A stretch of DNA of 64,000 bases, counting the filler, from Stramenopiles sp. TOSAG23-6 (lineage: Eukaryota): NCBI GenBank assembly GCA_900128565.1. It is 5 parts of 5 records of this genome, joined end to end, with 100 filler letters (N's around TTAATTAATTAA, not from the genome) between each part and the next. Parts side by side here need not be neighbours in the genome. Positions count along the whole stretch, not along the records: positions 13,200 to 26,260 come from LT636176.1; 4 more parts are not named here. One strand, given 5' to 3'. Under the pieces are notes generated by a model. It made no database searches and had not been told where the DNA came from. It saw only the letters and a program-made list of their open reading frames with translations. Positions 726-54,976 of this stretch are shown here, in pieces. The first letter of the stretch is position 1, and each line of letters starts with the position of its first letter. Both the position numbers and the translations under genes were made by a program.

Positions 726-1605
726 ATGGAAAACAACGCCGATTTTGGAGCACTCACTGAAGAGGCCTTCATTCAACAAGCTTCTTATTTGGCGTGTACA
801 TTTCCTTCCACAACGACAGATGCGGGTACCCATGATTTATATGGCTGGGAGCTAATCACAGCCAAAGCGAGTAAACTACACCCAACTATTACTTACCTTC
901 GCAAAGAAAAGATTTTTCCTTTCGGTGTAGATTATACGTCAGAAGCTTCATATAGTAAAAATCTAGAAGAGCCTTCTTCAGAAACGGAAATATTAAATAT
1001 AATTGAGGAGATAACAGAAGTTGAAGATGTTCAAGAACTGAGCGACTCTTCTAGTATAAAGCCTCAGTCACTCGAAAATACAACAGATAAATATAGAAAA
1101 GCATATTTACTATATGAATTCAACATCTTATACAGTCATACATATAAAGTTCCAATAATGTATTTCCGTGCATATATTTCGACTGGTGAGCCTGTTAGCC
1201 ACGACGTTTTGCTGAGTTTTATACCTGATTCATACAAAACTACGGTAAGTTCATGGAGTGTAACTTCAGAGGAGGAGCACCCAGTTACTGGGATTCCATT
1301 CTTTTGTTTACATCCTTGTAACACCAAGAAAATAATGTCTCAGCTATTGGGTAAAATTGAAACCAAATATGTAGTTGTTCAAAAATCCTATATGAATCCT
1401 TTGTATTTGTTTATTTGGTGTTGTTTCATATTTCCTATTTTACGTTTAAAACGGCCACTTGAAGAGTACGTTTTCATCATGAATTTTAAAACAAAATTTC
1501 ATACTAAATTTTGTACCTAACGATTTTGTGTTTTGAAATATATTTCATCGTACGTATATGAAACGATTATTGTAGATAAATATCAAATCGACATTAAAAT
1601 ATGAA
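726..1605 (+). CDS. ATG10: Atg10/Atg3-type E2-like autophagy conjugating enzyme; short last exon after the element, exact stop uncertain
   Basis: YSHTYKVPIMYF and EEHPVTGIPFFCLHPCNT catalytic HPC motif; ORF runs into an element at 1466. Confidence 0.75.
1466..1555 (+). mobile_element. Introner-like intron copy (3' end 1553 or 1555)
   Basis: GTACGTTTTCATCATGAATTT...AAATTTTGTACCTAAC...ATATTTCATCGTAC. Confidence 0.75.
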
Positions 1606-9416: not shown

Positions 9417-10958
9417 CTACAATTCTTCATCATGCGCATTTACATCAACCATTGGAATCTCAGCATCAAGGATAGCATTACCCACATTACTTTCCCTCCA
9501 ATTTTCGTCAAATCTCGTTTTTGACCAATTATAAAATGATTTCCATCCGCCCATCCCAGCCATGTGCATTATATTCTTTCCCATATAGAAGGAAGTCACC
9601 CACGGATAGGAAGTTTGTAAAGTAAAAAATATGTTTCTAAAGTTTAAAATTTGTTGATACGAATTATTTTTCGTAAACTAAAAAAAAAAAAATTGTACAA
9701 AATAAAATAATAAATTTGAAATTGAAATGAATTGTGAAAACATACAACACCAAAGGGCTCGGATAAGTTATAAAATACACGACTATTTACAGCACCGAAA
9801 CGTAATCCTTTAGGTAAATCTTTTGCAGCTTTTTCAGCGGCTTTGATATATTCAGGAGCAAGACTACAGTGTGAAAAAAATATTATTTTTGAGGAAAAAA
9901 ATCGTTAGGTACAAAATTTCGTACGAAAAAAAAATAATTTGAAATTCATAATGAAAACGTGCCTGTCGCATATCGGACATGTATCGCTATAATACTCGAT
10001 AATCCAAAAGTCATCACTTCTCAAGACAGTCTCAACAAAATTATCTTGATTTAAGTCCATAATAAATTTTGATTCATGTCGACCACATATGATGCTAAAA
10101 CACATATTATGTCAGAAATAAATCGTTAGGTACAAATTTTTCTATGAAAAAAATTCGAATTCGATCAAAAAAATAAAAAAAGTTAGGTACAAAATTTAGT
10201 ATACAAAAAAAAATTCGATCAAAAAACACACCTTCTTTATATATTCCAGGTTTTGTTCCCATTTCTACTTCATGCCATGCTTCTAAAGCTTGTCTTTGTG
10301 TCATGCCATTCGCAACTTTAGTCATATGGAACACAATTTCATCTGTGCCATGTCCACCTAGGTACCGAACTTTTTTTTCATGATTATTACTTGGAAAAGA
10401 ACCAAACGTGGTGTTAGTTGGTCGAGTAATTTCTGCTTGACCACCAACAAGGAACATACTTGGATATGATGTAATATTCCATTTGTGTGAATCTGCAGCT
10501 CTATATATATGGTTCTCCGGCTCGGAATCATCAAACTTAGCAAGGATTACAGGTTGCTTTAGGATTTCAAGACTAGATAGTATTTTAGCTGCATCGCGAA
10601 ACGCAGGAGCTACTTTTTGACAATGTCCACACCATGGCGCAAAGAACTCAAGTAAAATCAGAGAGTCATCTTTTGTGACTTCTAGCATTTCTTCAATCGA
10701 TTCGGCGTCTAATTCATGTACTTCAGTATCATCGGGTTCGGTAGTAGGGTTATTCTGCTTTTTCTCCCATTCTGCTCTTGCGTGTTCACAGAAATCACAA
10801 GTCAAAGGACAGTTGTACTGCATGTACTGTTTGTCAGCTCCATTACAGTCACCGTCCATGTTGCTCTTCCACATTGGACAGTCTGGGCTCCTATCTTTAC
10901 ATTGGAATTCACCAGAAGCTAATACAAAATAGACAGTGAGAAAAATGATTGAATTCAT
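9417..10958 (-). CDS. Protein disulfide isomerase family protein with signal peptide, ShK-like domain and two thioredoxin domains (4 exons)
   Basis: CKDRSPDCPMW...CPLTCDFC; FFAPWCGHC; YYSDTCPICDSLAPEY after splicing; C-terminal HDEEL. Confidence 0.8.
9615..9745 (-). mobile_element. Introner-like intron, GT...AA
   Basis: Removal gives EPFGV|TSYPW; starts GTATGTTTT, ends TTTAC-AA. Confidence 0.7.
9864..9962 (-). mobile_element. Introner-like intron, GC...AG, AG repeated
   Basis: Removal gives CPICDS|LAPEY; full consensus core. Confidence 0.85.
10087..10231 (-). mobile_element. Introner-like intron, GT...AT, with two core motifs
   Basis: Removal gives YKEG|GRHESK; TTTGTACCTAAC present twice; 3' end less certain. 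Confidence 0.6.
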
Positions 10959-11213: not shown

Positions 11214-13029
11214 ATGCCTGCACAATATACCATATTGTTTATATTTCTGACTTACGTGGCCATAGTTGTTCCAAGGTTAGTGAGTGGCGATGATGCGTTT
11301 AAAACACTGCAGTTAGATTTTGTCAGTCGTCTTGCAGCTGCACCAAACAAAGAAATATTTGAGACTGAATTTCTCAAGACTCTCAAAAATATTAAATCAA
11401 TGCATACATGGAACTGGCATGTATTAGGCACTGACTCTACATTGAAAAATGAATATGATGGTCCACATCCAAATGATTCTGTTGCCGTAATTGGTTGTGG
11501 ACTTTCAGGTCTTACAGCAGCCAAACATTTACTTCTTCAAGGTCGTAAAGTGGTTTTGATAGAAAAGTCAGGATTTTGTGGTGGAAATTCTTCGAAAGCT
11601 TCATCAGGAATAAATGGTGGCTGGACTGAACGGCAAAAGAAAATAGGAATTACAGATTCTGCTGATTTACTTTTTTTTGATACACTGAAATCAGCATCTC
11701 GTCCTGAAGGAAGTTATACATCAAAACTCATTCGTAAAATGGCCGACGAATCTAAACGTGCGGTTGAGTGGATTGCAAAACACGCGAATGTTAGTATGCC
11801 TGATGTAGGTCAGCTAGGTGGGCATAGTGTTCCGCGGACACATCGTCCACGTACAGGTTTGTCCGGGGCTGCCTTTATTTCTGGGCTGGAAAAATCAATT
11901 CGGTACGTTTTTTTCATTTTTTTTCCATTTTTTTTTTCATAGATAATTTTGTACCTAATGATTTTTTCTACAATATTTTTTCACAATACATGAAATATGA
12001 GGGCGATTTACTCACGATTCATAGAGGTGTTTCACTAACAGATCTTATTCCTCTATTTGCAACAACAAAATCTAAGAATGAACTTGATGACACCTGCTCT
12101 CATGACACATTTGACAACCCTAACCCTACCTCATGCAATAATCCTAACACTAACGAGAATTCACGACGTGCTTGGTTATTGAAGCTTCAAAAAGTTGATA
12201 GAAAATACAAACAAATTGGCTATAAACAACAAGTAGCTGTACAATCTGTAATATTAGCAACAGGTGGTTTTGCTGCTGATAGAGCGCCTGGCGGATTATT
12301 AGAAGAATTGCTACCCAAAAGTGGGGCTTCTCCAAAACTTCCAACGACAAATGTGCGTCAAAGACAAAGGTTTCATCATATTTTTTTTTTCACACGAAAT
12401 GTAGAGCCTAACAATTTTTGTTTTTTTAATATTTTTTTCACAATTCATGGAGCATGGGCTACTGGGGATGGTATAAAAATTGCTCGGAAGGTAGGTGCAG
12501 CAACAGTTGATATGGAAATGGTTCAAATCCATCCAACAGGATTTAGCGATCATCCCTCAGGTTTTAAGGATGATGGCACCAGAGTTCTTTGCGCCGAAAT
12601 TTTACGTGGTGTTGGTGGAATTCTTTTAAATGATGACGGTGAACGTTTTACGGATGAGTTAGAAACACGAAAAACGATTACATCAAAAATGAAGCAACTG
12701 CATACAAGTGGAAAATCTAAATCTGGGAAGTTCGTCATTGCTTTACCATCTGAAGCTTGGAAACAAGTGGATGCTCATGTTCACATTTATACAGGCAAAC
12801 AACTTTTACATTGGGTTGATGGATTTGAAGGTGTTACACACTTTATTCAGGATCGTCTAAACGGCACAGGAAAATTTGTCAAGTCGACGTTTTTAAATAC
12901 AACAAATCGTACCTCCATTGCTATACCTAGGAAAACATCAGTTCATCTGCCCCTATCAGGAAAATATCTTGTTGGTCTCGTGGAACCAGTGTTGCATTAT
13001 ACTATGGGTGGATTAAAAGTTCATCCAAT
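11214..13029 (+). CDS. FAD-dependent fumarate reductase flavoprotein (Osm1/Frd1-like), 3' end cut by gap
   Basis: VIGCGLSG, GGNSSKASSGING, GGHSVPRTH, LATGGF, PTTN|GAWATGDG, VQIHPTG, EILRGVGG, HYTMGG. Confidence 0.9.
11903..11991 (+). mobile_element. Introner-like intron, GT...AT
   Basis: Joins LEKSIR|KYEGD in frame; ends CACAATAC-AT. Confidence 0.8.
12353..12448 (+). mobile_element. Introner-like intron, GT...AT, AT repeated
   Basis: Restores PTTNGAWATGDG. Confidence 0.85.
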
Positions 13030-13099
13030 GTATGTTTTTTTTTTTTTTTTTTTCCGAATTTTTTTTTTGTACGAAATTTTTTACCTAAAAATTTTTTTT
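13030..13099 (+). mobile_element. Partial element copy at contig end
   Basis: AT|GTATGTTTT...GTACGAAATTTTTTACCTAA then gap. Confidence 0.7.
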
Positions 13100-19262: not shown

Positions 19263-19461
19263 TGTTTTTGTGGTACTATCCAATCGCCGAAGAAATGCAC
19301 TCTAAAATTGAGATATTAACACATTATACTTGAAATAGTACTGCCTAGAATACTTTCTTGAGATACTTTACTGCATGTCATAGTCGCGAACCATTCGAAC
19401 TTTTATTGAGGAGAGGGATTAAGATAATCCCTATACAAAGATTTCACACTTATAATAATTC

Positions 19462-21093: not shown

Positions 21094-21421
21094 TTTAAAA
21101 CTTGGTGGCAATTTATTAAGAAAGAGAAGTGATATTTTTTTCCAAGCCAAAACTGAGTCGTAAGAACACCGAAAAGATGTCGGGGTTCGGGGTTCGGCAT
21201 TAGTGCCAGTTCGCGGTAAAGAATGTCAAATAAATCGAAAACGAAATGGCCGTTACACAATCTAATCAAATCTGAAACTGGTCAGAATGAGAGATATATT
21301 ATTATTTACATTAGACGTTAATCATTCGATGTCTCAAAAGAGTGATAGATTCTATTGATACTTATCATGAATTCATACAAATAAATAGTAAGCTTTATTT
21401 ATTTGCGTGTGATTTTGTAGA

Positions 21422-22675
21422 ATGTGCACTAGCCGAGCACATCGAGGCTCCGCTTCGTGGTTACATTTGAACGTAGATAACGAGGTATATTTCCACGAGA
21501 TCAAAGGGCACAGAACAGCGTCCAAGAAACAGAATCGTATTGAATTTGAACTAAAGAAACTTTTGACTGGAGGCAATGCATTTAATGGTAGTGCAGCGGA
21601 TTCATTAGGCGTTTCGAAGAAAACTTCTGTCTCAACTAAAAGAGGTGTTGTACGACAAAATAATGTACCAAAGTTAAGTAAACAAGAAAATATGAAAAGT
21701 AGAAGGAAAAAAAAAACTGAGAGTTCTAATAGATTACCAGGTGAATATATACATAAACGATGGCCAGCTACAAATCCAAGGATTATAAAGCCTGATCCAG
21801 CTCAACGTTTCCTTTCTCCTTTGAGTAATAGAGTACGTTTTCAAAATTGAATTTATTTTTTTTGTACCAAATTTTGTAGCTAACAAATTTTTTTACTTTT
21901 AAAAAATATTTTTCAACAATACGAGGAATTAGAAGAGGAAGTGTCAACGCTATGGTTCATAGAAAAACTAGGGTGAATTATCTGTCACATTTAAAAAATT
22001 TAAAAAAATTAAAGAATCTCAGTAAATTTGGAACGACAAAGAAACCTGAAAAGGAGAATTCGATTCCCGTTTTCTCTACTATTGAAAGAAATGAACATCG
22101 AAATCGGATGTCTGTTTTTATTTTTTTCAATTTCGATTTTTTTTCGTACGAAAATTTGTATCTAACAAAAAAATTGAATGTAAAATATTTTTTCACAATA
22201 CATTGATCGTGAATTTTCACTATGGAAAACTGATATAGAGAAACGACGTCTAGCTTTACTTCAACTTGGAGATGAAGATCCAATTACAGAGGGATACAAT
22301 AATAATGTCTTGTTTAGATATACTAAAATGGAGTCAACAAATCAATCAGAATCCAAAAAAAAATCCTCATCTTATGTCAAAAATGGTGTTTTAGTAAATT
22401 TTTTGCCCAGAGAAAAAACACTCAATAACCCAGTCAATCAAAATATAAGAAAGCTGATATCAAAATCTAAAGTTCATCCGAAAAAGGTAAAACTACCGTT
22501 TATAGCTTCAAAGAAAGACATGAGATTTCAATTGTCGCCAAGAGCTCACAGTAAACCTTATTATGCTACTGGACCTGACTGGGCAGCAAAAGATAAGTTA
22601 ACTGCTTTACTGTGGAATGATGTAGACCCCACGAGAAGTTGGCCAACTTTTTATGATAGACCTGAACTTAAATGA
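21422..22675 (+). CDS. Hypothetical basic protein, 3 exons
   Basis: ORFs 21422, 21952 and 22310 fuse in frame when 21833-21924 and 22110-22203 are removed. Confidence 0.65.
21833..21924 (+). mobile_element. Introner-like intron, GT...GA, GA repeated
   Basis: aga|GTACG...CAATAC-GA|gga puts exon 2 in frame with the ATG at 21952. Confidence 0.75.
22110..22203 (+). mobile_element. Introner-like intron, GT...AT, AT repeated
   Basis: In-frame join into the ORF ending at 22675. Confidence 0.8.
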
Positions 22676-23023
22676 ATTATTTACACAGTTTTTATACTAG
22701 CTAGTAGAACCTGATAAAGTTTTAAAAAATAAAAATTTTAAATTTAATTATTAATTAAATGAAATTACCTAAAAAGCAGGTTTGTATTCTGTGAACGATC
22801 AGAATTGATCGAATCGCGATTATTTAGATTTCCATTAAATTGTCCGACACAATTAAATTGCAAGTCTTGCTTGGTGGTGTAGCAATGCTCGCAGTCAAAT
22901 CAGTCACTATAGTTTGATTGAATATCTCCCTACAAAATCATTAATTAAATATATTTAACGTCTTAAAAGTTCGGCTTGGCTGGAACATTGTAGTGTATTG
23001 CAGAACATAAGGGTTCTTGATTC

Positions 23024-25026
23024 ATGGTGGGGATATCAGAGAGTACTGAAGCCAATGTTAGTGAAAAAAATACTTCCGACACAAATACTGATCTCGTACC
23101 CTCAAATAATACTTCTCCCTCAGTATTATTAAAGCGAAAGCAATGTTCAGAAAGCAAAGCATGTGCATCTGAGGACGATCTCCCTTTATCAAAGCGTCCT
23201 CGAAAAATGAGTGAATCCAGCGTTCTACCAGTTAGTGAAGGCTGTACCACAGATGTAGTTGAGAATAAGGAACAACTTGGCGAAGATGGTTTAGCCAAGA
23301 AATTCGTTGATAATACGTGCACCAATAAGGCGCCCACTGAAGACACTAACATAAGTGTCAAAGTGATGAGTGACACTAATAATGCGAATGTTACAGGGGA
23401 GTTAGATGGTCGAATTGCTGTAGAACAAGAAGCTCAGTTTAGCACGGACAAAGCTACAAATGAGGAAGTTGGTATCAATAAAACAATAACAAGTATTCCT
23501 CCAATTATTCAAGATAAAGTATCTTTGCTTGTTTCAAATATTGCTGATACCCCTGTTGCGAATAACGTTTCTATGATGATTGCAGGAATGCAAGACAACA
23601 ATACTACTTCACAAGATAACAATACTAATACACAAGATAACAATACTACTACACAAGATAACAATACTACTACACAAGATAACAAAAATACACAAGAGAA
23701 CAATACTAGTTCAAGTTGCGTAGTTACTGAAGCTGATAATATTAATAATTCTTTTGAAGAAGCATACCAAGGAGATAAAAACAAATCTGTTTCAAGTAAT
23801 GATACAAATAAAAAGGCAATATCAAATAATACGGCAATGCAGGTAAAAGTGGCTCCACCTTTTATTTCAAGCAATGAGTCAAAAGAAGTATCGATACGAA
23901 ACAATTCTGCGATCGATACAGATAATGTTGATACAACTAGTGATGGATCATCAGAAAGTCATTCTCATTCTGATTTTCCTGATCCAAACTATTTCCGAAA
24001 AGGATACGATCTTAATGGAAACCCAATGTTTCCTTTTCTTTCTTCTTTAGATGCAAAAATTGCAAAACAACGAGAAAAAGATAATAATCATATGAAAAAT
24101 GATCAAGAAAAAAATGAAAAAAAAAATGATTTAAAGTTTAAAGATTCAATTCCGTCACTTCTGGCAATCAACATTCCGAAAGCGACTGTAAAACGTATCA
24201 TGAAAATTGATGACCAAGTATCAAAAGTTGCTGCTGATGCTGTCTTTATAATGGTACGTCTCATCATGAAATTTAGTTTTTTTTTCATACGACACTTTGT
24301 ACCTAACGATTATTTTTTTGAATGTTTTTTTCATACGAAATTTTGTACCTNACNGNTGNTTTTTTTTNAATNTTTNTTTCACAATACGCAAAAGCAGCAG
24401 AATTATTCGTTCGCAATTTTTCACTTCGATCTTTTGTAGGATCTATAGTAGATCGTAATAGTATTGGAGGTCGCCGAGATATTCGTTACGAAGATGTAGA
24501 AAGGTGTGTTCATCAAGCATCTGAATTTGGTCAAGACTGGCAGTTTCTTTTGCCACGTGTCATTCCTCCACCAATAGAGGCTTCTGTGAAACAACGAGCA
24601 CTTAAACCTCTATCAAACAACAATACACGTAAGTTGGCAGAATCAAAGAGTGGTATTACCAAAGCTATAAAAGTTAATACTTTACAGAATAATGAAGACT
24701 CCCAACATCCCCCGAAAAATGTTGTTGATGATGATATAATGGAAAGTAAAGCAATGGAAATAGATACAACAATGACGGAAACTACTAAAATTATTGAAGC
24801 CAATAAAACAGCGGATACAGCAGCAGTAAATGTTAAGGAAGTTGAAAAAATCCCAATTGAAAGTACCATTGAAGATACTTCTAATAAGGATAAAGAGGGA
24901 AATGAAGCTGAAAAAATCCCAATTGAAAGTACCATTGAAAATACTTCTACTAATAAGGATAAAGAGGGAAATGAAGCTGAAAAAGTCTCAATTACAATTG
25001 TAGATACTTCCACTAATAATCCCTAG
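23024..25026 (+). CDS. H2A-like histone-fold protein (NF-YC/POLE4/CHRAC15-like) with long low-complexity tails
   Basis: IPKATVKRIMKIDDQVSKVAADAVFIM|AKAAELFV; RRDIRYEDV. Confidence 0.75.
23591..23710 (+). repeat. 21-bp coding tandem repeat (QDNNTTT)
   Basis: caagataacaatactactaca about six times. Confidence 0.85.
24254..24387 (+). mobile_element. Introner-like intron, GT...AC, duplicated core, low-quality bases
   Basis: Restores DAVFIM|AKAAELF. Confidence 0.7.
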
Positions 25027-29840: not shown

Positions 29841-31774
29841 ATGAGTATTAGGTCTGAAAATGCTGGTGCATCCGAGGTAGATGTTGAACTTGGTTACTTC
29901 CGTTGGTGCTTATCTATGGCTGTTGTCAGTAGAACACCTTTACTCATTGATTTTGAACGCATGGACTTCACAAATGAAAATCAAACTCATGTGAAACAAA
30001 CTAATTCTTTTGAACAATTTGCTGATCACAAAAATAATTCATCAACTCGTTCTAGAAAGGCTTTACTGTCGCTATTACGTCACCACTTATCACCTGACTT
30101 TGATGTTCGACATATGAGATTTACACCTTCAACTGAACCAGAAGAATTTTATTTATCAAATATTGGTAATATTGATCGTAACCGTGTCACTAAAAACACA
30201 TTCTCTACTGAAAATTCTGACTTTAAAGGAGAACAGAACGATGAGAATTTGCAATATAGTGAAAAGAACACCTTGGTTGAAAATTTGTTTGAGACTAATG
30301 CTACTGAGGTCAATCTAGGTAAAATGACATGTAATAATCTGCAAGATGTTGAAAATAGTATACCAAATGAAAGCGTCAAAAAAGAAAGTTTTAATCAAAG
30401 TTCAGGCCAAAATTCTCACCAAAATTCTCACCCACACTCAAGACCTTTTTTGAAAGCTCCAAGTTTAACCCCAGAATTACGTAGAGCTTTTATGGCATCA
30501 AGAAATTCCGTCGATATAGCTTTTGTTGGTCAACAGGGTGTCTCTGGTGATGCTGTACATCAGGCGCAAAAATCAAAGGAATCAAAACAGCACAGACTTT
30601 TTGAAGAACATGTATGTTTTTATCATGAATTTCAAATTTATTTTTTTTGTAGCAAATTTCGTACCTAAAAAAATGTACCAATGTCCAAAATATTTTTTTT
30701 CACAATACATCTTATCTTAACAGCTCCAATATTGGGTAATATTTTAATTGTTGAAGATTTTGATCTTGCTCCTGAACACACACAAAAAAGCTTGCTCAAT
30801 ACAATGCGGCAAGGTATTTTGAAAGTTAATGTGGGTCATATTTTGAAACGAGTCCAAAACCTGTCAAAAAATCAGAATTTCTCATCGAATTCTGAAAAAA
30901 ACGAGTTTGAAAAGTTTTCTTGTGAAAATCCAGAGGAGATAGACTTATCAATCTCTCTTGCGGATCAATTTATCATATTAGCCACTGTTTCAGGCCCAAG
31001 GCTTTGTAACTCATCCAATTTATCCCGACAACCAAAACAAAATATTGATATTTCTCCTTTGGGTAGCCGGGTACCTCGAAGTGTCTTGGAACATTTTTTG
31101 CTTCGATTTGCACCTTCACCTGCATTGCTTGAAGAATATCGAAAATTATCAAATTCTCAGGAAGAGGATAATAATATAGCAAAAGAAATATATAGAAGTA
31201 GTATATGTATATCTAGTTATATTGGTATTATTCAATTACTTACTTCACCTTCTGAGCCACTGAAGGAGACAAAGTTTAGTGGTGAGAAAAAAAAACAATT
31301 TTCTGGCCCACTTGTCTCTCCTACTATAAGAAATATAAAGACTAACTCTTATGATTCAATAGATCAAGAGAAAGAAACAAATTATGTGGAATCGAAAAGT
31401 AGCAATTCTCCGGTTGTTTCGAATGGTGTGGAGAATACTGCCACCATTCGATTATCGTTTGATAGTTCAAAACAGTTGTCTAAAGATGCAAGAAATGTCC
31501 ATATTTCAGTAGAGTTGGATAGAGCAATACATGATATCTTGGTAGGATTACGCACGCATCATTGGGTGGTAGGTCATACGCGATACCAAATGATCTTGAA
31601 GCTATCGCAAATGCAACTTTGAGTCATCGCTTTAGTATTCGACGTAAAACTGTACAAATGATGAAGAAGTCCAAGAGAGTGAGGAAGAAAATATCGAATA
31701 GCCAGAAATTATACAACGTAGATCACTCACAGACAATTATTCAAAGTGTTTTGAATTCGATTTCATTCTACTAA
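29841..31774 (+). CDS. Degenerate MoxR/chelatase-type AAA+-like protein; apparent frameshift near 31565
   Basis: ILIVEDFDLAPEHTQKSLLNTM; VHISVEL..LRTH; GRSYAIPNDL...LSHR in a second frame. Confidence 0.5.
30612..30710 (+). mobile_element. Introner-like intron, GT...AT, CAT repeated
   Basis: FEEH|LILTAP in frame; the next AG is out of frame. Confidence 0.8.
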
Positions 31775-31867: not shown

Positions 31868-34398
31868 TTATTTTCTCCGTTCTAATAATTCTTTTTTTGC
31901 TTTAAAGAATGCGTTCATATCTGATTTTTTCTGTTTTTTTTCTGTCGCTTTAAATATTCGTGTATTGTTGGATTCCTTTTTTTTAGTCGACAGGTTTGAC
32001 ATTTCCTGAAGCCATAGTTTAAAACTTTTAACTACGTTAGACCTATTTTTTTCCATCATACGTTGTATTGATTCAATTTCTTTCTTCAACTGACGGAGTT
32101 CTGCAAACTGTTCTTTGTATATATTCTTCTTTTCGTTCATTTTTTCTCTCAGTCTAACTTCTATATCTCTACTTTTTTCATTATTTTTTTCCTCGGCTGT
32201 ATTTTTATTTTTATCAGCGTCACTATTTAACACATCTTGATTTATATTTTCACGATATCGCCATTCTTCTATTTTCTGTTTAATTTCGTTAATTTGTAAT
32301 CTTGCATCATTCACTAACTTTCCCGCTGCTTTAGCAGCATTAATCTTTATTTTTAACTCCCTTTTATTCATATCAATTGCAGCTTCACCTCCAGCTTGAG
32401 ACCAATGCTGACGGAAATATTCGAATGAAATTTTACCATCTGACAAAACTTTTACATCATCTGGGAATGGAATACTTCTCGGGTCTAAATCTAAATGTAC
32501 AGACTGTTGTAAATCAAATGACTTAATTTGTCGATTTTCATTTGCGCAGTGACTAGTGTTTTCAACTGATGTATATGAAAAGTTATCCGATGTTTTTGTC
32601 TCTCTTGTAGATACTTCAAAATCCCCTCCAGTATGACTTTTGCTCTCATGTTGATGTGATAGATGGTGACCACCTCTATTGTTCACTTTGTTGGTAAGAT
32701 GAAAAATTTCTTGGTCTCGTTGATGGAGTTTTTGTCTTAATGCATTTATTTCGTTGTGCATTATCTGAATATTATTTTCATCAGGTCTATTTCTATTATT
32801 CGATTGCTCATCATACTTGGAATATTTTGTTGATTTTGTTGATCTTTCTCTCACAATATCACGAAATATTGTAAATGCTGTTTGTATTCGTTTAAAAGTA
32901 TATTTATTGCCTAGTGATAAGTGGGTATTTTCATGATTGCTTATTAATGATTTATCGTCGACAAAACTTTCAATTTTTTTCTTCAAAAATTCAATTTCGG
33001 TTGTTGTCATATTTATGTCTACTTCGTTTTCATCAGTAGTATCAGATTGTTTCAAAAATAGAATTTCTTCCTTGAGTTTCCGTACTTCAGACTTCAAACG
33101 TCGGATGAGTAATGTTGGGTTTATCTCTTCATTTATATGTGCTTTTTGGCGAACTAAAGCAACTCTCTGTGCAAATCTACATGTACTCAAAGACTCTTCA
33201 AGTTGAGGTATATCTGGACTCATCGTAGCAACCATTGAAGTTAAACAATTTCCCCCAAGTGAGTCTCGTAATATTGATGTCATCATAGAATTTCTGTAAG
33301 GAATATGCCCTCGTCCATGTTTCAGCCTCTCATGTAGTGCAATGATTACCATTTGTAAATAGTGCAGAGATTTATTTATATACGATGCTTCTTGTAATAA
33401 TTTCCCAGATGTATTGTGAAAAAAAACACGAAACTTTACCAAAAAAATCGTTAGGTACAAAATTTCGTACGAAAAAAACATAAATTCGAAATTGAAAAAA
33501 ATAAAACACACAAGTGCCATGTTTGTGAGTTCTCTCTGACCCAGCAAGGTCGACAAGGTTCAATTTTGAATGCTTTATTGTATCACTGCCATACTTCCTT
33601 TGTTCAATAGATATTGTAAACACGCAATGACTCCGTGAAGAATTTGCGTTCATCGCGGTTTCTGCAATTGCACGATTTGTATCACCTAGAAATAGCAAAT
33701 TTAAAGCTTCTTCCTCATTGTTCGCAAGGTGCATGTATTTTGAAAAAATATTTTGAAAAAAATCTAAAAACAATTGTTAGGTACAAAATTTCGTACGAAA
33801 AAAAAACGAAAAAAAAAAAAATAAAAGATAAAAAACGAATTTGAAAAAAATAAAAGATACATGCTCAAGTTCCTTAAGTTCAACGAGCCAGCTTCATCCT
33901 CAAGAATACTTATTTTTTCTCTTTCTCCTCCCTGATTATTTTGGTTTGGTGATAATAAATCAAAACCTTGTTCATTATAGATTTCCAGAAACGAAATGTA
34001 AACTTGAAAATGAGTGTCTTGATATTTTTCATCTTTAAAAGAGTTGAAAAGATATGATAAAGTACGAGGAATTACACCTCTCTGGTCATATCGTTCGACG
34101 CCACCAGTGATTGTAAATGTTTTACCAGATCCGGTCTGGCCATAAGCAAATATAGTACCATTAAAACCTTTTAGTTGAAGACATCTTCCTGCGTTGCAGT
34201 CTCACCAAGCAAACCATTAAATTTATATGAAAAATTCGTGCGAGTATTATTCACCATATTTCGTTGCTTCTCAATAGGAACACGGAAATATACTTTCCCT
34301 TCATCGGGTTGAATTTCGTAGAAGTTACTGGATTGTTTGCTTGGACGAATTCTTAAATAAATGCGAATATTTGAAGTTCCTGTTTCTTCGTCGGCCAT
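31868..34398 (-). CDS. Kinesin-9 family (KIF6-like) motor; apparent short deletion and stop at 34171
   Basis: GQTGSGKT, EEALNLLFLGDTNR, NANSSRSH, DLAGSE, YINKSLHYL, HIPYRNS. Confidence 0.9.
33409..33511 (-). mobile_element. Introner-like intron, GT...AT
   Basis: Restores DLAGSERTHKHGTSGKLLQEASYINKSL. Confidence 0.85.
33733..33860 (-). mobile_element. Introner-like intron, GT...AT, AT repeated
   Basis: Restores LRNLSMHLANNEEEAL. Confidence 0.85.
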
Positions 34399-43224: not shown

Positions 43225-44188
43225 TTGAGAAAGATGGAAATACGTAGTTTCTTTGCAAATTTCCGTGCAAAATTCCAAAGACAAGACGTGATAGCAATAC
43301 TATTTGGTGTTGGTATTGTCTGTTTTACATCTTGTTGTGTACATAAGGGGATAGTACGACGAATTCGAAGACGTGAGCTTGCTAAGCTGTGTCTTAGGAA
43401 GCGTAAGGAACGTGACATACGACGGATGGAATTCAAAAGGAAGTTGAATCTTTCATTTCCAAGACCGGAAGATGAAGACATTTACACTAGTATGACTGCA
43501 ACACAGCTTCTCAAAGCTTTTAAACTGAGAAAAATACGTTGTGAAGATGCAATGCGAGCATTCTGTGCTAGAGCATTACGTCTTGGAGAACTTACCAATT
43601 GTATTACGGAGGAAGATTACGAGAATGTATGATTTATTTTGTTTCAAATTCGAATTTTTTTTCGTACGAAATTTTGTACCTAACAAATTTTAGTTTTTTT
43701 TTTGGAAATATTTTTCCAAAATACATTCTAAATTGGAACACTCTGGCTTCTTACGCCAAAAAGCGACACTAATTTTACGAGATGCAGAATTACTTTTGTT
43801 AGATTCATCTTTGATGAGGAAAAAAAAATTTAAAACGTCTTTTCAAAACAATTTTCCTGAAGAGAAAAAAGATGATTCTTTTATTCATAAATCCGCTGAT
43901 TTTGATAATAGTGTTAATCAATACTTTTCACGTGAAGATTCTATGTCAGCACGAAACATGGGCGAATTAACACTATTACTTAGATTAATCGAAGAACTTG
44001 TCCATGATAGACTAAGTCTTCTTGGATTGAGCCATGGGGCATTCCTCCGATTTTCAGCTGATCTTGCAGAATTGAGGAATCCAACTCTAAGTTTGCCTTC
44101 TCGTGTAAATACGATCAAAAGAATGTTTCGCACTTATAACTTTCTTGCCATGTCACAAAGCCAACGTTGGAGAGATAAATTTGTGTAA
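43225..44188 (+). CDS. Amidase (FAAH-like) N-terminus joined across an element to a non-amidase exon
   Basis: TM helix; MTATQLL..IRCEDAMRAFCARA...TNCITE; exon 2 in frame from 43727. Confidence 0.5.
43627..43726 (+). mobile_element. Introner-like intron, GT...AT, AT repeated
   Basis: Full consensus; in-frame join YEN|SKLEH. Confidence 0.8.
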
Positions 44189-44299: not shown

Positions 44300-46162
44300 T
44301 TATTTTGTTGGGGCGCGTGTTGCTTGAATAACATTTTCCATTAAAAGTTTAAATTCCCCTAGTTCGGTGTTTAAAATAGCACATTTTTTGTTGGACTTTT
44401 TAATTTTAATATCCAGTTCCTTGGCTCTCTTCCTCGCCACAGTAAGCCCATTATTGACTTCATCCAATTCCTCTGTGTACTGAAACAAAGTGTTTTTTAA
44501 TACTTTAATTTGTGATGAATCTTTATTTTCATTTTTCTTGTTTATTTCCGCTTCTAATGTTTTGTTTAGAATGTGTAAATTTTTGCATTTTTCTTCCAAC
44601 TGTAACAAAGTCGTTTCCAAATTTGTAATTTTGAAGTTTAAACTCATACACTTAATACGTTTCGTCTTGTTTGAAATTACAGCATTTGTTATTAGCTCTT
44701 CATATTTTAATCGCTCGTGATGCATCAATCCCATTTTATTTGATATTTCTGAAATTACTTCGCCTTGATTTTCTAAATATTCTATCGGTATGGTGTTTTT
44801 GGAGGGTGACATGTATTTTAAAATATATTTCTTTTGTGTTTGAAATTTGTTAGTTATGATACAATGTCTAAAAAATAAATATTTAGGTGAAAAATCATTT
44901 TGAAAACGTAGGGGTAGGGTTGAAAACTTACGGTGCAAACTCGAATGAAGCTGAAGTATCCCATATCTTATTATTCATTTCACTATGTGCGATTGCCTCA
45001 TCAATACCAAGACTCACCTGATTGCCAATCTTTTCTATCACATGCAACGAATTCTTTATTTGATTTACATGCTGAAAATTATCCGAAAATTCAGACCTCA
45101 CAGCAGAGCGAAGCCTTTTGACTTCAGCACGCTTTCTATCTCTTTCGTTGATTGCATCTTTATAAAACTGAACCAATATATTGTGAAAACCTATTTTTAT
45201 ATTTGAAATTTGTTAGTTATGTCATATAAAATCATGGTATAAAATTTAAATTAGGTAGAACACCAAAATGTAATTGTTGATAAAGTTAATACTCGAAAAC
45301 ATTTTTTTTTTTTTTGAAATGTTTTTGAAACAAATATTGAAATTCTTGATGAAGACGTACATCTTTGTTTTTCATCGTCGTTTTTAATGAGTAGTTTTTG
45401 TAACTCTACAAAGTGATCTTGTTTGAGCTTCAATAACCCCATTTCTAATTTGTCTTTTACCGCCCAAGATTCACGTAGTTTTTTTCGAGCTTCACTGTAA
45501 GAACCATCTTGAAGTTTCTTTGTAATTTCTAATTTCTTTTGATTAATTTTTTTAACCAATTGACCGGCGATGTCATCTGTATCTTTTAAACTTTTCTGAA
45601 TTTTATTTGCATACACGCGTAATTGATTAAATAAAGGTTTGCGTAAACTAGTATTGACATATGTCCCTAAAACACTGCTACACAGTGTAACGAACTCCTC
45701 CCAATTCACTTTACCATCGAAATCTTTATCAAACACTCGCAGCTTTTCTAGAAAAGTTTTCTTGTTTAATCCTAAACCCAATTGTTTGAACAAATTCATC
45801 ATTTCATTTTCATCAAGGAAAAATTCTACGCGCTCCAAAGATACATCTGTATTCGCATTTTGAAACAGAACGTATAGCATTTTAACATCAACTTGATTCT
45901 GTGTTAAAGTTACCAACTGATCAAAATGAATGCGTTTCTTTGGTGAAAGCACAAGGTTTGACAACGTCAAAAGTCTTGAAAGTTCTTGTTTTGTTAATAT
46001 AATATCTGATGAAGTTAAGCAATGTTCGATTTGATCTGTCGAAATGGTACCATCTTCAAATTTGTTAAAATCAAACTGTTGTTGTAGTTTTTCTAATTTG
46101 TCTGTGCTCAACGGTTGGGGTTTCAATCGGTTTTGATTCACTTCTGTATCAAAATTTTCCAT
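44300..46162 (-). CDS. EF-hand and coiled-coil protein, 3 exons
   Basis: DKDFDGKVNWEEF; three ORFs fuse after removing two elements. Confidence 0.7.
44811..44931 (-). mobile_element. Diverged introner-like intron, GT...AT
   Basis: GTAAG...AACTAAC...TAAAATAC-AT; EFAP|SPSK in frame. Confidence 0.7.
45176..45360 (-). mobile_element. Long introner-like intron, GT...AT, AT repeated
   Basis: GTACGTCTTCATC...CACAATAT-AT; KQRL|VQFY in frame. Confidence 0.75.
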
Positions 46163-46470: not shown

Positions 46471-47200
46471 ATGTCACAAGAAAGTTGGCAAAAGAAAGCT
46501 AGCTGGGGGAAACCAACTTGGTGGGGAGATAGTTGTTCAGTTAATGACGAAGAAAAAAAACAAAAACGAACGTCAAAAGAGACTGAAGATATAGAAACAT
46601 CAAAACTACTGGAACAAGAAGACGATGAAAAACAACGCCGAGCTATATTGGGTTTGTCGAACAAAACTTTATCATCCGTGTATGATACCAAGTGCCACCC
46701 ACCCTTAAGATACTCTGGAGGAAATAACTTAAGTTCCCGCTCTCATCAAAAAACACAAAATATGAAAAGAAACGAATCAAAGTTTTCAGAGAAGCATCCA
46801 GAGTTTCAAGATAGTTTTGAGATTAAGAAACGTCTTAAATATTCATTAGCAAAACATAAACGAACGAATAAACTTGAAGATCAGTTACTTGTAAACGAAA
46901 CTACACTATCTGGAAAGGGAGGTATAAAGAAACAAGCATTTCAGGCGGGAGGCCCAAGCATGTATGTTTTATTTTTTTTGTATGAATTTTTTTTTCGTAC
47001 GAAATTTTGTACCTAACAATTTTTTTTTCTTTTTGAAATATTTTTAAATGTACATGTATAGCTCTACGTCCACAATAACGAGGCCTTCTAGTCATTTAGG
47101 GGATCTAAAGCCCTTTAGAACAAAAAAAATGATGAAAACATTAGCAAAATGTGGCCGTTATGTGAGAGATCCTCATAGTACCTATCTTCGCAATACTTAG
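46471..47200 (+). CDS. Hypothetical protein, 2 exons
   Basis: Frame continues to TAG at 47200 after removing the element. Confidence 0.6.
46962..47055 (+). mobile_element. Introner-like intron, GT...AT (an in-frame AG 6 nt downstream is also possible)
   Basis: Full consensus core; CATGTAT at both junctions. Confidence 0.75.
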
Positions 47201-48529: not shown

Positions 48530-50048
48530 ATGAGTAATATAGATTATACCGACGACATTTTCAAATTAACTAAGGATCGCATACATCAGAAATTATCGCC
48601 AAATGGGCCACTTTCTACTTGGGAGAAAACAGGTCCATTTTGTTTCGTTCAGTTGGCTGACACTCAATTTGGTATGCTAGAGCAAACATTTGATGGTCAG
48701 TGGCTCCGAAAATACCGCAAACTAATTAGTATTTTGACTTTAGGGTATATTGATGGAAGGAAAGTAATTCCAGTTCCAGAATTAATTCATGAAAAAGCTC
48801 GATCTGAACTATTTGAAATGGAGAAAATATTTAGCGAACAAGCTGTTGAAGCCGTGAATGCAATTTTTCCACGTATTTTAATTTCATTACAAATAGACAA
48901 TGAACAATATAGATTTAGCCTTTAGGTACAAAATTTTGGTAGAGAATAGAATTATAATTTCATTTTTTTTATTATTTAGATATATTATACATGATATGCC
49001 CTGCTTTTGTCATAGTTTGTGGAGACTTGGTCAATGCTATGCCCCATAAAGAACCTACGTATGTTTTATTTTTTTTTCAATTACGAATTTATTTTTTCAT
49101 AGGAAATTTTGTACCTAACAATTTTTTTAGATTTTTTTTGAAATATTTTTCCACGATACACTCGACATATGGCTCAAGTAAAAACATTCAAAAAGATATT
49201 TAGTAAAGTTCATCCAGATATTGCATTAGTCTGCTGCTGTGGAAACCATGATGTTGGAAATAGACCAACACCAAAAACAATAAAAACATGGAGCAATAAT
49301 TTTGGTTCAGATTATTTTAGCTTCATTGTTGGAGGTGTAAAATGTATTGTATTGAATAGCCAATTATATAAAGATCCATCATCTGCTCTAGATCTTGCTG
49401 CAGAACAAGACACATGGCTCGACTCAGAACTTGCACATACGCATTTGAGTAGGGATAACTCTCAGAAATCACGAATTATAGTTTTTAGTCACCATCCTCC
49501 TTTTATCAACGATCCTTATGAAAATGATGAATATTTCCCATTGGATCGCATTACAAGGCTTCGCCTTTTACATAAGTTATGCCGTGCTGGAGCTACACAC
49601 TGGTTTTCGGGTCACTATCACCGTAATGGTATGTTTTTATAGTGTGAAAAATTTAGTACAATATTTTATATAATACAAATTAAAGTTATTCATTTTTAGC
49701 TTTTGTTAACTTTCTATTGTATACAAAAACGCAGGTGGGATTTATTATGAAACTAAATGTGGAGAATCTAATAGGAGTAAAAAGACAGTAGAAACAACAC
49801 CAAATCGTACTCCAAAGACATTAGAAGTATGTGTAACTGCTGCAGTTGGTGCTAATATTATTTCGGATTCATCCGGAGATATTCTTGGATTATCTGGAAT
49901 GAAAGCTCTTGTAGCCGACACGAAAACATCTGGAATTCGTGTTGTAAAAGTTCACGAAAAAACAATTTCACATAAATATTATAGCCTATTCGAATGTTCT
50001 AAGAAGATAAATGAAGCTAATGATGGAATTTGGCAAATTAATTTATGA
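48530..50048 (+). CDS. CPPED1: Calcineurin-like metallophosphoesterase (CPPED1-like), 4 exons
   Basis: LADTQFG, CGDL, GNHD, HHP, GHYHRN, SGIRVVKV. Confidence 0.85.
48873..48997 (+). other. Intron containing an inverted element core; 3' end 48979 (AG) or 48997 (AT)
   Basis: Starts GTATTTT; contains TTAGGTACAAAATTTT. Confidence 0.5.
49059..49161 (+). mobile_element. Introner-like intron, GT...AC, AC repeated
   Basis: HKEPT|RHMAQV in frame. Confidence 0.8.
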
Positions 50049-50125: not shown

Positions 50126-52531
50126 TTATTGAGATGTAGACATATCACTAGCTTCGAAAGTATTATGATGTTCCATATCCACATCACTTGTATTACTGTT
50201 TACATTAGTAACATCTCTCGATTGGCTTCGAATACTGAAATTATGTACTTCATCTGAGTTCTTAGATTTGCCTTCAACCAAAGAATTTTTTTGTTGTTTT
50301 TGTTGACTTTTTTTGTTTTTCAAAAGTTCTTTTGTAGAATAATCTGCTTTCTTTTGTTCAAAATTTCGAGAATTATGAAGAGCTCCCATTAATCCAGCAG
50401 GATTTGGAGAAGGCATTTTTTGTATCGATGAAACAAAACTCATTCCATCATCAGTTCCATCAGCAACACTACTTAAAGTACTAGCACGACTGTCACGCAC
50501 ACTACTACCATCGTAAATGCTACTACTACCAATACTATTTCCTGTATTACGTCTGCTACGAACTCGTAATCGTTCCAATTGTCGCAGTACAGGACGTGGC
50601 GAATATTCTGCAGTGCTAGGATTAGTCACAGAATCACTTTTATTACGAGTTATATTTCCTATATTACTCTTAGAAGTTTGTTTAGGTGAATGGAATGTCT
50701 TTACTGGCGAATGTATTGAAGACCAAATACTTTTGAGTTCAATTTTGAGTTGTTTTGCAATTGATGATGTCACTGATTTCTGAAGTACCACGTGATCATC
50801 TCCTTCAGATCGAAATCCTACAACCTCAAGAAGAGCTCGACCTTGAGGGCGACTTAAAAGTTTTCGGCGAAGAGTGCTTGAAGCAAGAGAGAGTCGTCGA
50901 TATTTTCTTATACTAGGCTTCGCAATGACCCGATCCATTATTCGACACAATAAAGCAGTAGCACCTTCCACAACTGTTGATGGGTTTGAAGCACAAAACT
51001 CATTAATAACAGATTTAATAGCAACTTTTTGTCTAGAATATACTGCTACTTCTTCTACAGTCATCCCAGTGATGTTTCCAACTGACACTTTTTTTTTGTT
51101 CAAATCCTACATTTGTATTTGATACACAAGAATTTGTCAACGAAGATTCTCTAGTATGATCACCGACGCGTGTCTCATAGAGAGATCTAGAAGATGCAGG
51201 ACGATTTGTTTTGTTTGATTTATTTAATGTTGTATTTGACGAAGATTCCAACATTGATGTATTCTAAAAACATATTTCAGAAATATGATTTTTTTTGTTA
51301 GGTATAAAATTTTGTGGAAAAACAAATTAAATTCATTAGGGTTAGGATTAGGGTTAGGGTGAAAACATACATGATCCTAATACTTCACTATGAGCTGTAA
51401 AGGGTCTTTTGTACTTACGATCTGAACGACTTTTCGAATTGGACATAGAACCAGATCCAATTATATTACCATTATTACGGGTTTCAATATCATCAAGTTC
51501 TTCCGATAATTCGCTTCCAGTCTCTTCAATAGCTCGTTCTTCAATATTACCGATTTTTCTGTTCTTTCTCATTCCACCACGACCACCACGACCTCCTCTT
51601 CCACCTCTGCCACCTCGACCAAATTGAACTATATTGTGAAAAATAATTTTTTTTTGTTGAATTTGTTAGGTACGAAATTTCGTACCAAAAAAAAATAATT
51701 TTGAAATTGAAAAAAATAAAACATACCAATGTTTCCTCTTGTGTTAAAATTACTGTGAGATCCAGAAATTCTATCATTCTTTTCAGTGAAATCATTCGAA
51801 TTATTATTAACTTCCTCATCATCATCTTCCTCGAAATCATCACTATTATATTCAAAGTTGGAGTTTTCCGGGGTATTCGATTCAAAAATATTAGTTTTAT
51901 TCTCTACATCTTTAGAATTTGAAACATGAATATTTTGTATTAATTGAATATTATCGGAACTACGACCTCTTAATACATTTTCCACATCTCGCGCTGCTTT
52001 AGTTAAACTATTACGAGACACGTCCAAGTCAGCAAAACCTTCTTTAGTTAAACTATTACGAGACACATCCATGTCACGAAAGTCTTCTTTATCATACATA
52101 TTTGACACGTTTGTTGTATTTCCTATGAGTGAGGAAATTTGAGATTCTTGGCTAATTTCATTTGTTGCTCTCTGCTGATGATGCTTACTCCTTCTCTTTG
52201 ATTCAAATGCAATAGATGAAACATTATTTCTTTCATCATCTGTCTGACTCGATTCACTATGACTGTCGTGTCCACCACTGACATTATCAAACTTATCATT
52301 TATTGCAAATTTACCTCTTTGAAGTGACGCCTTTCCAGTAACTTTTTTTCTAAATGGATTACCTGGAGAACTTCGTGCAGCAGCTGCTAAAACAGATTTT
52401 GATAATCGACCACCAATACTGTCATTTTGATTGAGTCGTCTGTTCCAAGTTAAATCATCGGGGATATTAATTCCAGTTAAGTTACTGTTACTCAGAAATC
52501 CTGTGGCATCATCAGAATGTAAGCCATTTGT
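50126..52531 (-). CDS. PUB-domain low-complexity protein, 5' truncated; probable homopolymer frameshift near 51090
   Basis: DRVIAKPSIRKYRRL...GRALLEVVGF; RGG repeat. Confidence 0.65.
51257..51370 (-). mobile_element. Introner-like intron, GT...AT, containing telomere-type repeats
   Basis: VLGSS|MLES in frame; about four CCCTAA units inside. Confidence 0.75.
51629..51726 (-). mobile_element. Introner-like intron, GT...AG
   Basis: GNIV|QFGRGG; perfect palindrome GGTACGAAATTTCGTACC. Confidence 0.85.
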
Positions 52532-53898: not shown

Positions 53899-54976
53899 TC
53901 AACAACATTTTTTTTTCAGATTACTTTCACCGACATCACCAGTTAAAGAAACCTTTTTGTCCCCAGTATACATTTGATACTTACTTTTTTCTGCAAGTGC
54001 TTCCATTTCCAAATTCTTCAAAGAAAGTTCTGCCATTTTGAGAAATGCTTCCTCAATGCCAATGCCTGACTTCGCACTGGTTGCAAAGAACGGAATATTA
54101 GAACTTTCAGCCAGTGCCCGACCTTCTTCTATATCACATTTGCTATTAGGAATGTCACATTTGTTCGCCAGGAGTACTTGTACAACATTAATTGGAGCAT
54201 TTTTCGTTATTTGCTTCATCCAAGATCTGATGTTTGAAAAAGATTTTTAATTATCTAAACTATAAACCATGAATGTATATTGAAAAATATTTTTTTTGTA
54301 ATAAAATTCGTTAGGTACAAAATTTACTATGAAAAAATAAATTTAAAATTCATGATGAAAACGTACATATCCCCTGAGCACCTCGGTAATACGCTGTACA
54401 AACTACATGGTGTATATGAATGAAAGAAATAGAGATGATGAGAATATGTTTATACTATACCAATCAAAAGAAATTTATAAAGTGAACACAGTTGTAAAAC
54501 AAAATGTTAGTTACAAAATTTGGTACAAAAAAACGAAATTATTATTGCACTTACTTGTCTTAAATCTTTCTTGTCCTGCAGTATCCCACACTTGTAGCTT
54601 CAACACTTTGTCGCCAACAGTAACAGTTTTAATTTTAAAATCAATGCCAATTGTCGTAATAAAATTAGTGGTAAACTTTCCATCACAGTATCGGAGTAAA
54701 ACACAGCTAAAATATTACAAGATAACAACAATAATACACAAATTAGAGACACAATTGATACTTGCTGCTAACTTCGGAGACTGTTAGTATACTATACTAT
54801 AACATAATAGAAGAACACACACACAATGAAATAGGAGAAAAAACAAAAAATCGGGTAATCAACGTGGCAAAAAAAACAAGACTAACCTACCTTTTCCCTA
54901 CTCCAGAGTCTCCAATGAGCAAAAGCTTTACAAGATAATCAAATTTGCTTCTACTGTTCGAATTTTTCATAGTCAT
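53899..54976 (-). CDS. Rab8/Sec4-like small GTPase, 4 exons, in-frame TAA at 54247
   Basis: [42 protein letters not shown]-terminal CC; GT-AG introns 54707-54890 and 54403-54554. Confidence 0.88.
54273..54366 (-). mobile_element. Introner-like intron, GT...AT, AT repeated
   Basis: Restores [12 protein letters not shown]. Confidence 0.85.

Follow-up and report, generated by a model that had tools for sequence, protein, structure and literature searches.

Huff reportedly described introner elements of Micromonas pusilla and Aureococcus in 2016, and Henriet is said to have done the same in 2019 for the non-canonical introns of the larvacean Fritillaria borealis. In the parts of the literature covered here, the underlying principles are already known: introners that create a duplication and lose one of its two copies through splicing (Gozashti 2022, PMC9860276; review PMC11282704), and transposon-derived introns that do not end in AG, which occur in Fritillaria (PMC13326754, PMC11282704) and Amoebophrya (PMC7789003). 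The locus described here adds a probable duplication of 2 bp, a non-AG border, and a stramenopile host. It lies in a stretch of 64,000 nucleotides joined from five records of Stramenopiles sp. TOSAG23-6 (GCA_900128565.1; hereafter the window), in which a 92-nt element at positions 21833–21924 (copy c07) belongs to a family of similar introns. The copies of this family are probably short, non-autonomous, introner-like mobile elements that duplicate 2 bp of their target and are spliced out together with one copy of the dinucleotide; there is good support, but no proof, for classing them as introners with a target-site duplication of 2 bp. The literature searched, which did not extend to Henriet's work of 2019 or to supplements, did not mention such introns for stramenopiles, nor for the marine stramenopile (MAST) lineages. 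The MAST-3 single-cell genome paper (PMC5778133) uses the word 'intron' twice and 'splice' never in the portion covered, and a 2026 preprint on new single-cell genomes gives intron proportions only.

In c07, exon sequence ending in AAT AGA is followed by GTACGTTTTC, CTAAC, a U-rich stretch, and CAACAATAC GA, after which the exon continues with GGA ATT. Taking out the 92 nt links an open frame of 140 codons to one of 93 codons; an intron that ends at the AG at 21924–21925 (93 nt) leads to a stop after 16 codons. A preliminary description made from the sequence alone had claimed that the GA junction keeps the frame and that the AG one nucleotide later causes a stop within about 17 codons, and both claims hold. 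Contigs from one DNA run (X3) and three RNA runs, all of seawater, were mapped to positions 14496–24350. A 156-nt contig from a polyA metatranscriptome (X7 record 20) covers 21767–21830 and 21923–21988 unbroken and with 0 differences. Since GA stands on both sides of the element, which makes the junction ambiguous by 2 nt (21830/21923 to 21832/21925), this skip of exactly 92 nt equals the removal of 21833–21924, and since it is not 93 nt long, the AG one base downstream is excluded as the splice site. The element itself is contained in a DNA contig (X3 record 3; 21746–21950, 0 differences).

A search with nhmmer seeded with c07 gave 36 matches at approximately 28 loci in the window, and a search for strong 5′ sites added two copies (c29, c30). 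The census comprises the 24 copies with both ends readable, excluding copies cut by N's; the borders of c05 were redefined from an alignment with fumarate reductase homologs. Copies are about 90 nt long and have the form GTAYGTTTT..CGTACGAAATTTTGTACCTAAC..TTTTTCACAATAC+NN, where NN stands for the last two intron nucleotides, whereas an alignment of 20 copies yields the fuller consensus CAT|GTATGTTTTATTTTTTT.AATTTCAAATTTTTTTTTTCGTACGAAATTTTGTACCTAACAAATTTTTT..AAATATTTTTTCACAATAC AT. In this alignment, the best-conserved blocks are GTAYGTTT (with G, T, A, G, T, T, and T conserved at 90–100%), the central CGTACGAAATTTTGTACCTAAC, and the 3′ TTTTTCACAATAC; GTAYGT and CTAAC are both among them, and the consensus reads CCTAAC. 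The likeness among the aligned copies spans their full length and ends at the flanks. In the DNA run, summed contig depth is approximately 800–8,600 over the elements versus 5–10 alongside, and divergence sets in exactly ahead of 21833 in about 20 contigs and behind 22203 in 25. Together, these features identify the family as a repeated element rather than merely a set of common splice signals. The single family with GTAY..RTAC ends that had been proposed earlier is thus borne out by the nhmmer loci and the alignment, but its terminal inverted match of about 4 bp shrinks to GTA/TAC, with a fourth pairing position in some copies only; among the copies that start with GTAC, only c01 has the GTAC end. 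In 23 of the 24 copies (for c21 by motif only; the borders of c26 are unresolved), the junction is best spanned by an open frame on the strand of the element itself, which places the copies in sense orientation to their genes. These genes encode a kinesin, a fumarate reductase, a Rab protein, and ATG10-like, thioredoxin-like, and histone-fold proteins, together with unnamed products. A pattern scan of the metagenome found one locus only, an AT/AT copy on contig L001.

The length removed is the core plus the two NN bases. Of the 24 copies, 21 have their best open frame after this removal; those that differ are c09 (core alone), c26 (degenerate), and c21 (too near a short exon to judge). RNA-joined contigs exist for all three copies in the mapped stretch and show removal of core plus 2 nt in c07 and c08 and of the core only in c09. 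For c08, a 240-nt contig from another study (X9 record 25) covers 22047–22107 and 22202–22364 and skips the 94 nt at 22110–22203. Comparison with homologs shows scar-free junctions in c13 and c14 of the kinesin gene and in c04 and c05 of the fumarate reductase gene. Three exon pieces of the kinesin gene align to PDB chains: those on either side of c13 abut on 9ijj_c and 3nwn_A, and those at c14 abut on 7n61_0X, with exactly one residue, the split junction codon, left between them in each case; these chains are solved structures of the KIF9 type. The c04 junction has 0 gaps against 11 homologs. At c05, removal results in TTN|GAWATGDG, where all 11 homologs have TN-G..(A/T)TGDG without an insert, and removal of core plus 2 nt restores the G common to all of them. 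In the 23 copies with resolved borders (c26 excluded), the intron ends with AT (15), AC (3), AG (2), GA, TT, or GT (1 each), so that the 3′ border differs from that of canonical GY-AG introns in 21 of 23 cases. Ordinary introns of the window, such as the one at 49629 and the first of the Rab gene, appear by eye to be GT-AG.

NN repeats the last two bases of the upstream exon in 16 of the 24 copies (AT in 12; AG, GA, AC, and TT in one each). These are the same 16 copies that the preliminary description had counted, albeit among a total of 24 readable copies instead of 26, and its expectation that the match would exceed chance once AT bias was controlled for is confirmed for the copies in the window: when NN was shuffled among copies with the AT frequencies kept, the mean was 9.0 matches, with at least 16 reached in a fraction of 1e-5 of 200,000 shuffles. 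Pairs other than AT/AT match in 4 of 12 cases, and other pairings of upstream and downstream offsets give 0–4 matches versus 14 (first 20 copies). The exon ends with AT in about half of the copies versus 9.5% of all dinucleotides in the window, which indicates that AT is preferred, either at insertion or by survival. The pairs that do not match are those of c01 (GA/GT), c04 (CG/AT), c09 (TG/GC), c13, c20, c24 (AT/AC), c26, and c29 (CC/AT). For c13 (at 33511; exon ..ACT T, NN AT) and c20 (at 51726; exon ..ATT G, NN AG), the differing base is at the third codon position, as previously stated.

These observations suggest the following sequence of events. The element would bring along a 5′ splice site of its own (GTAYGT), a CTAAC that resembles a branch point, a tract rich in U, and the conserved 3′ end TTTTTCACAATAC, and would most likely enter an exon by way of a 2-bp staggered cut that leaves the target dinucleotide, most commonly AT but also GA, AC, TT, or AG, on both sides. 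The spliceosome would then take the core and one copy of the dinucleotide, restoring the original frame and sequence, with a 3′ cut at a fixed place, two bases past ATAC, whatever those bases may be. The distance from ATAC to the cut is constant among the copies; that from CTAAC to the cut varies. Because NN usually copies the end of the upstream exon, insertions would leave no scar in the protein, and because core plus 2 nt is removed whatever NN is, the 3′ cut does not appear to be set by AG; in c07, the one case tested, the fixed position is preferred over an AG one base downstream. It is quite possible, although we propose this only tentatively, that the spliceosome sets the 3′ site of the whole intron family by position, two bases past TTTTTCACAATAC, rather than by AG, and that non-AG splicing has originated independently outside tunicates, alveolates, and euglenozoans. 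A 3′ site set by position would allow a transposon with a 2-bp duplication to heal itself at any target dinucleotide.

With introners, as portrayed in the parts of PMC9860276 and PMC11282704 covered here, the family shares short, non-autonomous, multi-copy elements inserted in sense orientation into exons of unrelated genes, which supply one or both splice sites and leave the length of the mRNA unchanged, one copy of the duplication being spliced out. The window likewise shows many similar intron copies in unrelated genes, removal from the mRNA, and a locus-specific duplication (on statistical evidence only). By contrast, the introner families described there are GY-AG introns whose AG comes from the element or the duplication, whereas the 3′ border here is mostly non-AG; their duplications comprise 3–9 bp, whereas here 2 bp of almost any sequence are involved; and many of them have clear terminal inverted repeats, whereas the inverted ends here measure 3–4 bp.

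The introns of Fritillaria (Soo 2026, PMC13326754) also end with AT or AC and are thought to derive from transposons; according to the part of that paper covered, they are removed by a U2-type spliceosome, and they close with a repeat of the short triplet (YAY) that precedes the 5′ site. In the window, 18 of 23 introns end with YAY (CAT 13, CAC 2, TAC 1, TAT 2) and the others with CGA, CTT, CGT, or TAG (twice); among the AT copies, only about half have a C ahead of the exon-terminal AT. The repeat here is a dinucleotide, for which GA or TT is possible, and not a YAY triplet. Moreover, the main classes of Fritillaria introns start with AG, whereas the 5′ site here is canonical (GTAYGT); their host is an animal, whereas the closest named relatives here are stramenopiles. 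Amoebophrya (PMC7789003, in the part covered) resembles the present case in being a marine protist with direct repeats across the exon–intron borders, diverse non-GT/AG ends, and an interpretation of its introns as similar to miniature inverted-repeat transposable elements (MITEs). It differs in having direct repeats of 3–5 nt and inverted repeats of 8–20 nt that form a hairpin, and U1 was not found there; the family described here has no predicted consensus structure and a canonical 5′ site. The nonconventional introns of euglenids share variable borders and short repeats at the junction, but as characterized in the relevant part of PMC11282704, they depend on pairing near their ends and lack a canonical 5′ site, neither of which holds here. 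RNAalifold predicted 0 pairs for the 20 aligned copies, and six single-copy folds had z-scores from −2.2 to +1.1 and differed in shape, and an RNA structure of the Euglena or Amoebophrya type that joins the ends was accordingly rejected; scans of the window for Rfam families and tRNAs gave no matches. Insertion of a Tc1/mariner-like element at a TA inside a palindromic ATGTACAT was also rejected, because it predicts a loss of 6 nt where the kinesin junctions show none and because the GA and TT flanks are not palindromic.

Wherever NN matches the exon end, the junction data fit the departure of either copy of the dinucleotide alike. The same element and duplication could accordingly be read with reversed splice sites, the 3′ cut falling right after TAC and the 5′ cut two bases upstream of GTAYG, so that most introns would be of the form AT..AC. 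This is unlikely, although it has several points in its favor. The cut in c09 directly follows TAC, the introns would resemble the YAY-ending ones of Fritillaria, and all 16 matching copies would end with TAC, TAT, TTC, or TGT, 12 of them as AT-AC, a chemically compatible pair of intron termini. At c04, reversed sites give M, in line with the L or M of the closest homologs, whereas R results if the exon copy is kept; this weak hint, together with c09, favors the cut at TAC. However, R occupies this position in one homolog from Leishmania, and c09 itself begins at GT. A 5′ cut at GT is favored by the canonical GTAYGT, which forms a perfect site of the U1/U6 type and is the best-conserved 5′ block, and by c02 (GC-AG) and c20 (GT-AG), which are canonical in that register only. 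At c01, in an ATG10-like gene, the best homolog has E, as if the copy of the dinucleotide in the exon had been kept, which is a weak hint in the same direction. U12-type AT-AC introns are marked by ATATCC at the 5′ end and by the branch site TCCTTAAC, whereas the consensus of the family has GTAYGT and CCTAAC.

It is very improbable that no duplication is involved and that the family spread either as RNA that was reverse-spliced and then reverse-transcribed or as DNA whose insertion involved no staggered cut, with a preference for sites after AT and with NN carried by the element. Twelve of the 16 matches are AT/AT and could reflect such a site preference combined with an element-borne AT; c04, c29, and c26 carry AT as NN after other exon ends, c09 lacks the repeat, and there is hardly any terminal inverted repeat. 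If NN were carried by the element, however, it would not covary with the exon, whereas GA, AC, TT, and AG each match their own exon. The 4 matches among the 12 other pairs compare with about 1 in 16 by chance, and the shuffle that preserves AT gives the same verdict (P = 1e-5). Scarcely credible, finally, is excision at the DNA level in the manner of the internal eliminated sequences (IESs) or 'pointer' sequences of ciliates, or an origin of the joined contigs from alleles that never carried an insertion: the RNA nature of contigs from metatranscriptomes is not guaranteed, and short AT-rich elements in coding sequence with a 2-bp flanking repeat of which one copy stays do formally resemble the IESs of Paramecium and Oxytricha, but ciliate IESs are removed from somatic DNA with no strand bias, whereas the copies lie in sense orientation (23 of 24), which DNA excision would not require, the copies carry GTAYGT and CTAAC, the DNA contigs (X3 records 3, 4, 6, and 8) keep the elements at the depth of the flanks (5.1 vs. 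5.3–6.6), the genetic code is standard (long open reading frames [ORFs] end with TAA 21, TAG 10, and TGA 8 times), and the window's genes can be read only once the elements are taken out, so that the evidence favors splicing.

Several observations weigh against the preferred reading of the family as introners that are spliced out with one copy of a 2-bp duplication. One is c09, whose contig (X9 record 28) stops at 24254 and resumes with the letters of 24389 onward, so that the core at 24254–24387 alone is lost. The frame of this histone-fold gene agrees with the RNA (411 open codons upstream and 212 downstream at +0 vs. 411 and 22 at +2), and the flanks, TG and GC, do not match. The rule of core plus 2 nt therefore has at least one true, RNA-verified exception. 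In c04 and c29, both bases of the pair mismatch; a single base differs in each of c01, c13, c20, and c24, and the borders of c26 are unresolved. The lack of a repeat in c09 and the double mismatches suggest that some copies may have arrived otherwise or that their borders have shifted. The weak hints from c01 and c04 as to the departing copy conflict. The RNA evidence consists of three contigs in total, one metatranscriptome contig for each junction, from two polyA studies; RNA libraries can contain DNA, and an element-free allele would give an identical contig. The terminal inverted repeats, merely 3–4 bp long, fall short of the approximately 10 bp or more of MITEs, no transposase domain was detected in the 29 ORF pieces scanned from the window, and an autonomous element did not turn up. 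Neither an empty site nor a polymorphic copy was seen, including among the 15 joints listed of 63 in X3, which is why we infer, rather than observe, insertion with a 2-bp duplication. Of the duplication with a preference for AT claimed in the preliminary description, the excess of matches survives the control for AT bias, but an empty site to confirm it has not appeared; its claim of a scar-free loss together with one copy of NN is upheld by the four homolog junctions and 21 of 24 frames but fails for c09 and is not matched by the flanks of c04 and c29.

Positions of the c07 element, its parts, and the other family copies in the window. Figures a/b are open codons upstream/downstream of the junction; pairs XX/YY are exon end/NN.
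Feature	Position	Strand	Remarks
c07, family intron, 92 nt	21833..21924	+	GTACGT..CAACAATAC+GA; open frame; RNA contig X7 record 20
GA dinucleotide, exon copy	21831..21832	+	intron copy at 21923-21924
5′ splice-site hexamer GTACGT	21833..21838	+	family consensus GTAYGT nearly invariant
CTAAC, branch-point-like motif	21880..21884	+	within the most conserved family block ..TTTTGTACCTAAC..
3′ end motif CAACAATAC, conserved	21914..21922	+	family consensus TTTTTCACAATAC; cut 2 nt further on
c01	1466..1555	+	exon GA, NN GT; 256/16 at +2
c02	9864..9962	-	GCACG..CACACTGT+AG; AG/AG; 49/73; reads as canonical GC-AG
c04, fumarate reductase gene	11903..11991	+	GTACG..CACAATAC+AT; exon CG, NN AT; 232/385 at +2
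c05, fumarate reductase gene	12353..12448	+	GTGCGT..CACAATTC+AT; AT/AT; 96 nt, open in frame
c06, 5′ part, cut by N's	13030..13099	+	exon ..AT, then GTATG; outside census
c08	22110..22203	+	GTCTG..CACAATAC+AT; AT/AT; 76/157; RNA contig X9 record 25
c09, internal duplication	24254..24387	+	GTACG..CACAATAC; GT..AC core alone removed; flanks TG/GC
Copy cut by N's, 3′ part	26361-26449		..ATAC+AT; outside census
c12	30612..30710	+	AT/AT; 258/303
c13, kinesin motor domain	33409..33511	-	GTGTG..CACAATAC+AT; exon TT, NN AT
c14, kinesin motor domain	33733..33860	-	GTATC..CAAAATAC+AT; AT/AT
Copy cut by N's, 5′ part	39331-39400		exon ..AT; outside census
c16	43627..43726	+	AT/AT; 136/153
c29	44811..44931	-	GTAAGT..; CCCTA-type repeats inside; exon CC, NN AT; 93/170
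c30, long copy	45176..45360	-	end CACAATAT+AT; AT/AT; 275/82
c17	46962..47055	+	AT/AT; 198/48
c18	49059..49161	+	AC/AC; 33/160
c19	51257..51370	-	AT/AT; (CCCTAA)n inside; 98/74
c20	51629..51726	-	GTATG..CACAATAT+AG; exon TG, NN AG; 288/91; reads as GT-AG
c21, Rab gene	54273..54366	-	AT/AT; open frame ambiguous; fits Rab motif by eye
c23	56378..56471	+	GTAGG..ATAATAC+TT; TT/TT; 347/1457 at +2 vs. 347/8 and 347/27
c24	61073..61165	-	exon AT, NN AC; 281/33
c25	61847..61947	-	AT/AT; 112/246
c26, degenerate, borders unresolved	62212..62312	-	exon TG, NN AT; best frame +1 with assumed 5′ site
c27	62530..62640	-	AT/AT; 63/94
c28	62755..62899	-	end CACAATAT+AT; AT/AT; 269/50

The host is a marine protist, most likely a MAST-3 stramenopile. 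The window is eukaryotic and gene-dense, with about 35% G+C and long open exons. The best named homologs of the kinesin are from stramenopiles, and in a quick tree it falls outside the animal clade (support 100), where it shares a long branch with environmental sequences; every aligned block of the fumarate reductase gene is identical to a coding sequence (CDS) of EukProt (P0121) whose source label begins with GSMAST32. On these grounds, a fritillariid tunicate, an animal type with duplicated U2AF, was rejected as the host. The soluble fumarate reductase, the LOG-family protein, and the KR-sulfotransferase encoded in the window presumably also speak for a protist rather than an animal. A changed genetic code or a ciliate host is excluded by the standard stop codons of the long ORFs; the taxa 'Ciliophora' and 'Chordata' given by two Atlas look-ups are weak leads on which nothing here is based.

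The P0121 gene model deletes 11 real codons after c04 and treats c05 as a GT-AG intron, losing the conserved G, which suggests that this class of introns has gone unrecognized in the lineage. Annotation pipelines that admit only GY-AG introns mis-model these genes, and, judging from the errors in P0121, the protein sets of the lineage likely carry systematic errors. If the 3′ site is indeed set by position, current gene models of the lineage miss this splicing. The family touches on the open questions of why spliceosomal introns nearly always end with AG and how intron gain comes in bursts. It offers a small, testable system with a canonical 5′ site, and a 3′ cut that is defined by distance from an internal motif and seems not to depend on the last two bases, along with natural variants in one genome (AT, AC, GA, TT, and AG ends and one exception at +0) and a new host lineage of abundant, uncultured marine grazers. 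Across 11205–13144 (+), six gaps separate the P0121 CDS from the ORF, three of which remove sequence that aligns with homologs (e.g., RKYEGDLLTIH and RAWLLKLQK..QQV), and the model reads on into the next family intron at 13030.

Some features of the family stand apart from the census. Telomere-like CCCTAA or CCCTA repeats occur within c19 (51345–51368, −) and c29 (44909–44920, −), in both at the same spot right after GTAYGTTTTCA; short CCCTAA/TTAGGG motifs are also present near two gene starts (about 34650 and 48430). At 27110–27150 (−; nhmmer E = 5e-6), a stretch of 41 nt matches the core of the family; it lies antisense within an ORF of 516 residues (26411–27958) and may be due to chance or represent an exonized fragment; an Atlas look-up gave a weak tubulin-like lead for this ORF. 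Two partial copies in tandem at 10090–10235 (−), between exons of a thioredoxin/ShK-domain gene, were left out of the census, as their borders are not resolved. The exon downstream of c02 had no match in a PDB search, and the c02 junction was read by eye from a CxxC..LAPEY motif.

In the Rab gene, the second intron (about 54405–54553, −) starts with GTAAGT and includes part of the family core. For switch II to keep its invariant length, the intron must be removed as GT..TA or TA..AG, and GT/AG is one base out of register (by eye). The same gene has an in-frame TAA at 54247–54249 (−) where Rab proteins have E (presumably that of the NEKSF motif), whereas the rest is intact and ends with KKKCC-TGA; as the genetic code is otherwise standard, this TAA is probably a sequencing error or a polymorphism. 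The kinesin frame breaks at ..QEDVFN* (34165–34185, −) and continues in a different frame at KGFNGTIFAYGQTGSGKT. Some 13 residues found ahead of the P-loop in kinesins are missing, and there is no intron-like sequence between the two frames; an assembly deletion or a pseudogene could account for the break, as could some other cause. An ORF of 1441 residues at 13148–17470 (+) combines a polyketide-type KR domain with a Sulfotransfer_3 domain and is adjoined by a second Sulfotransfer_3 protein at 19465–21225 (−).

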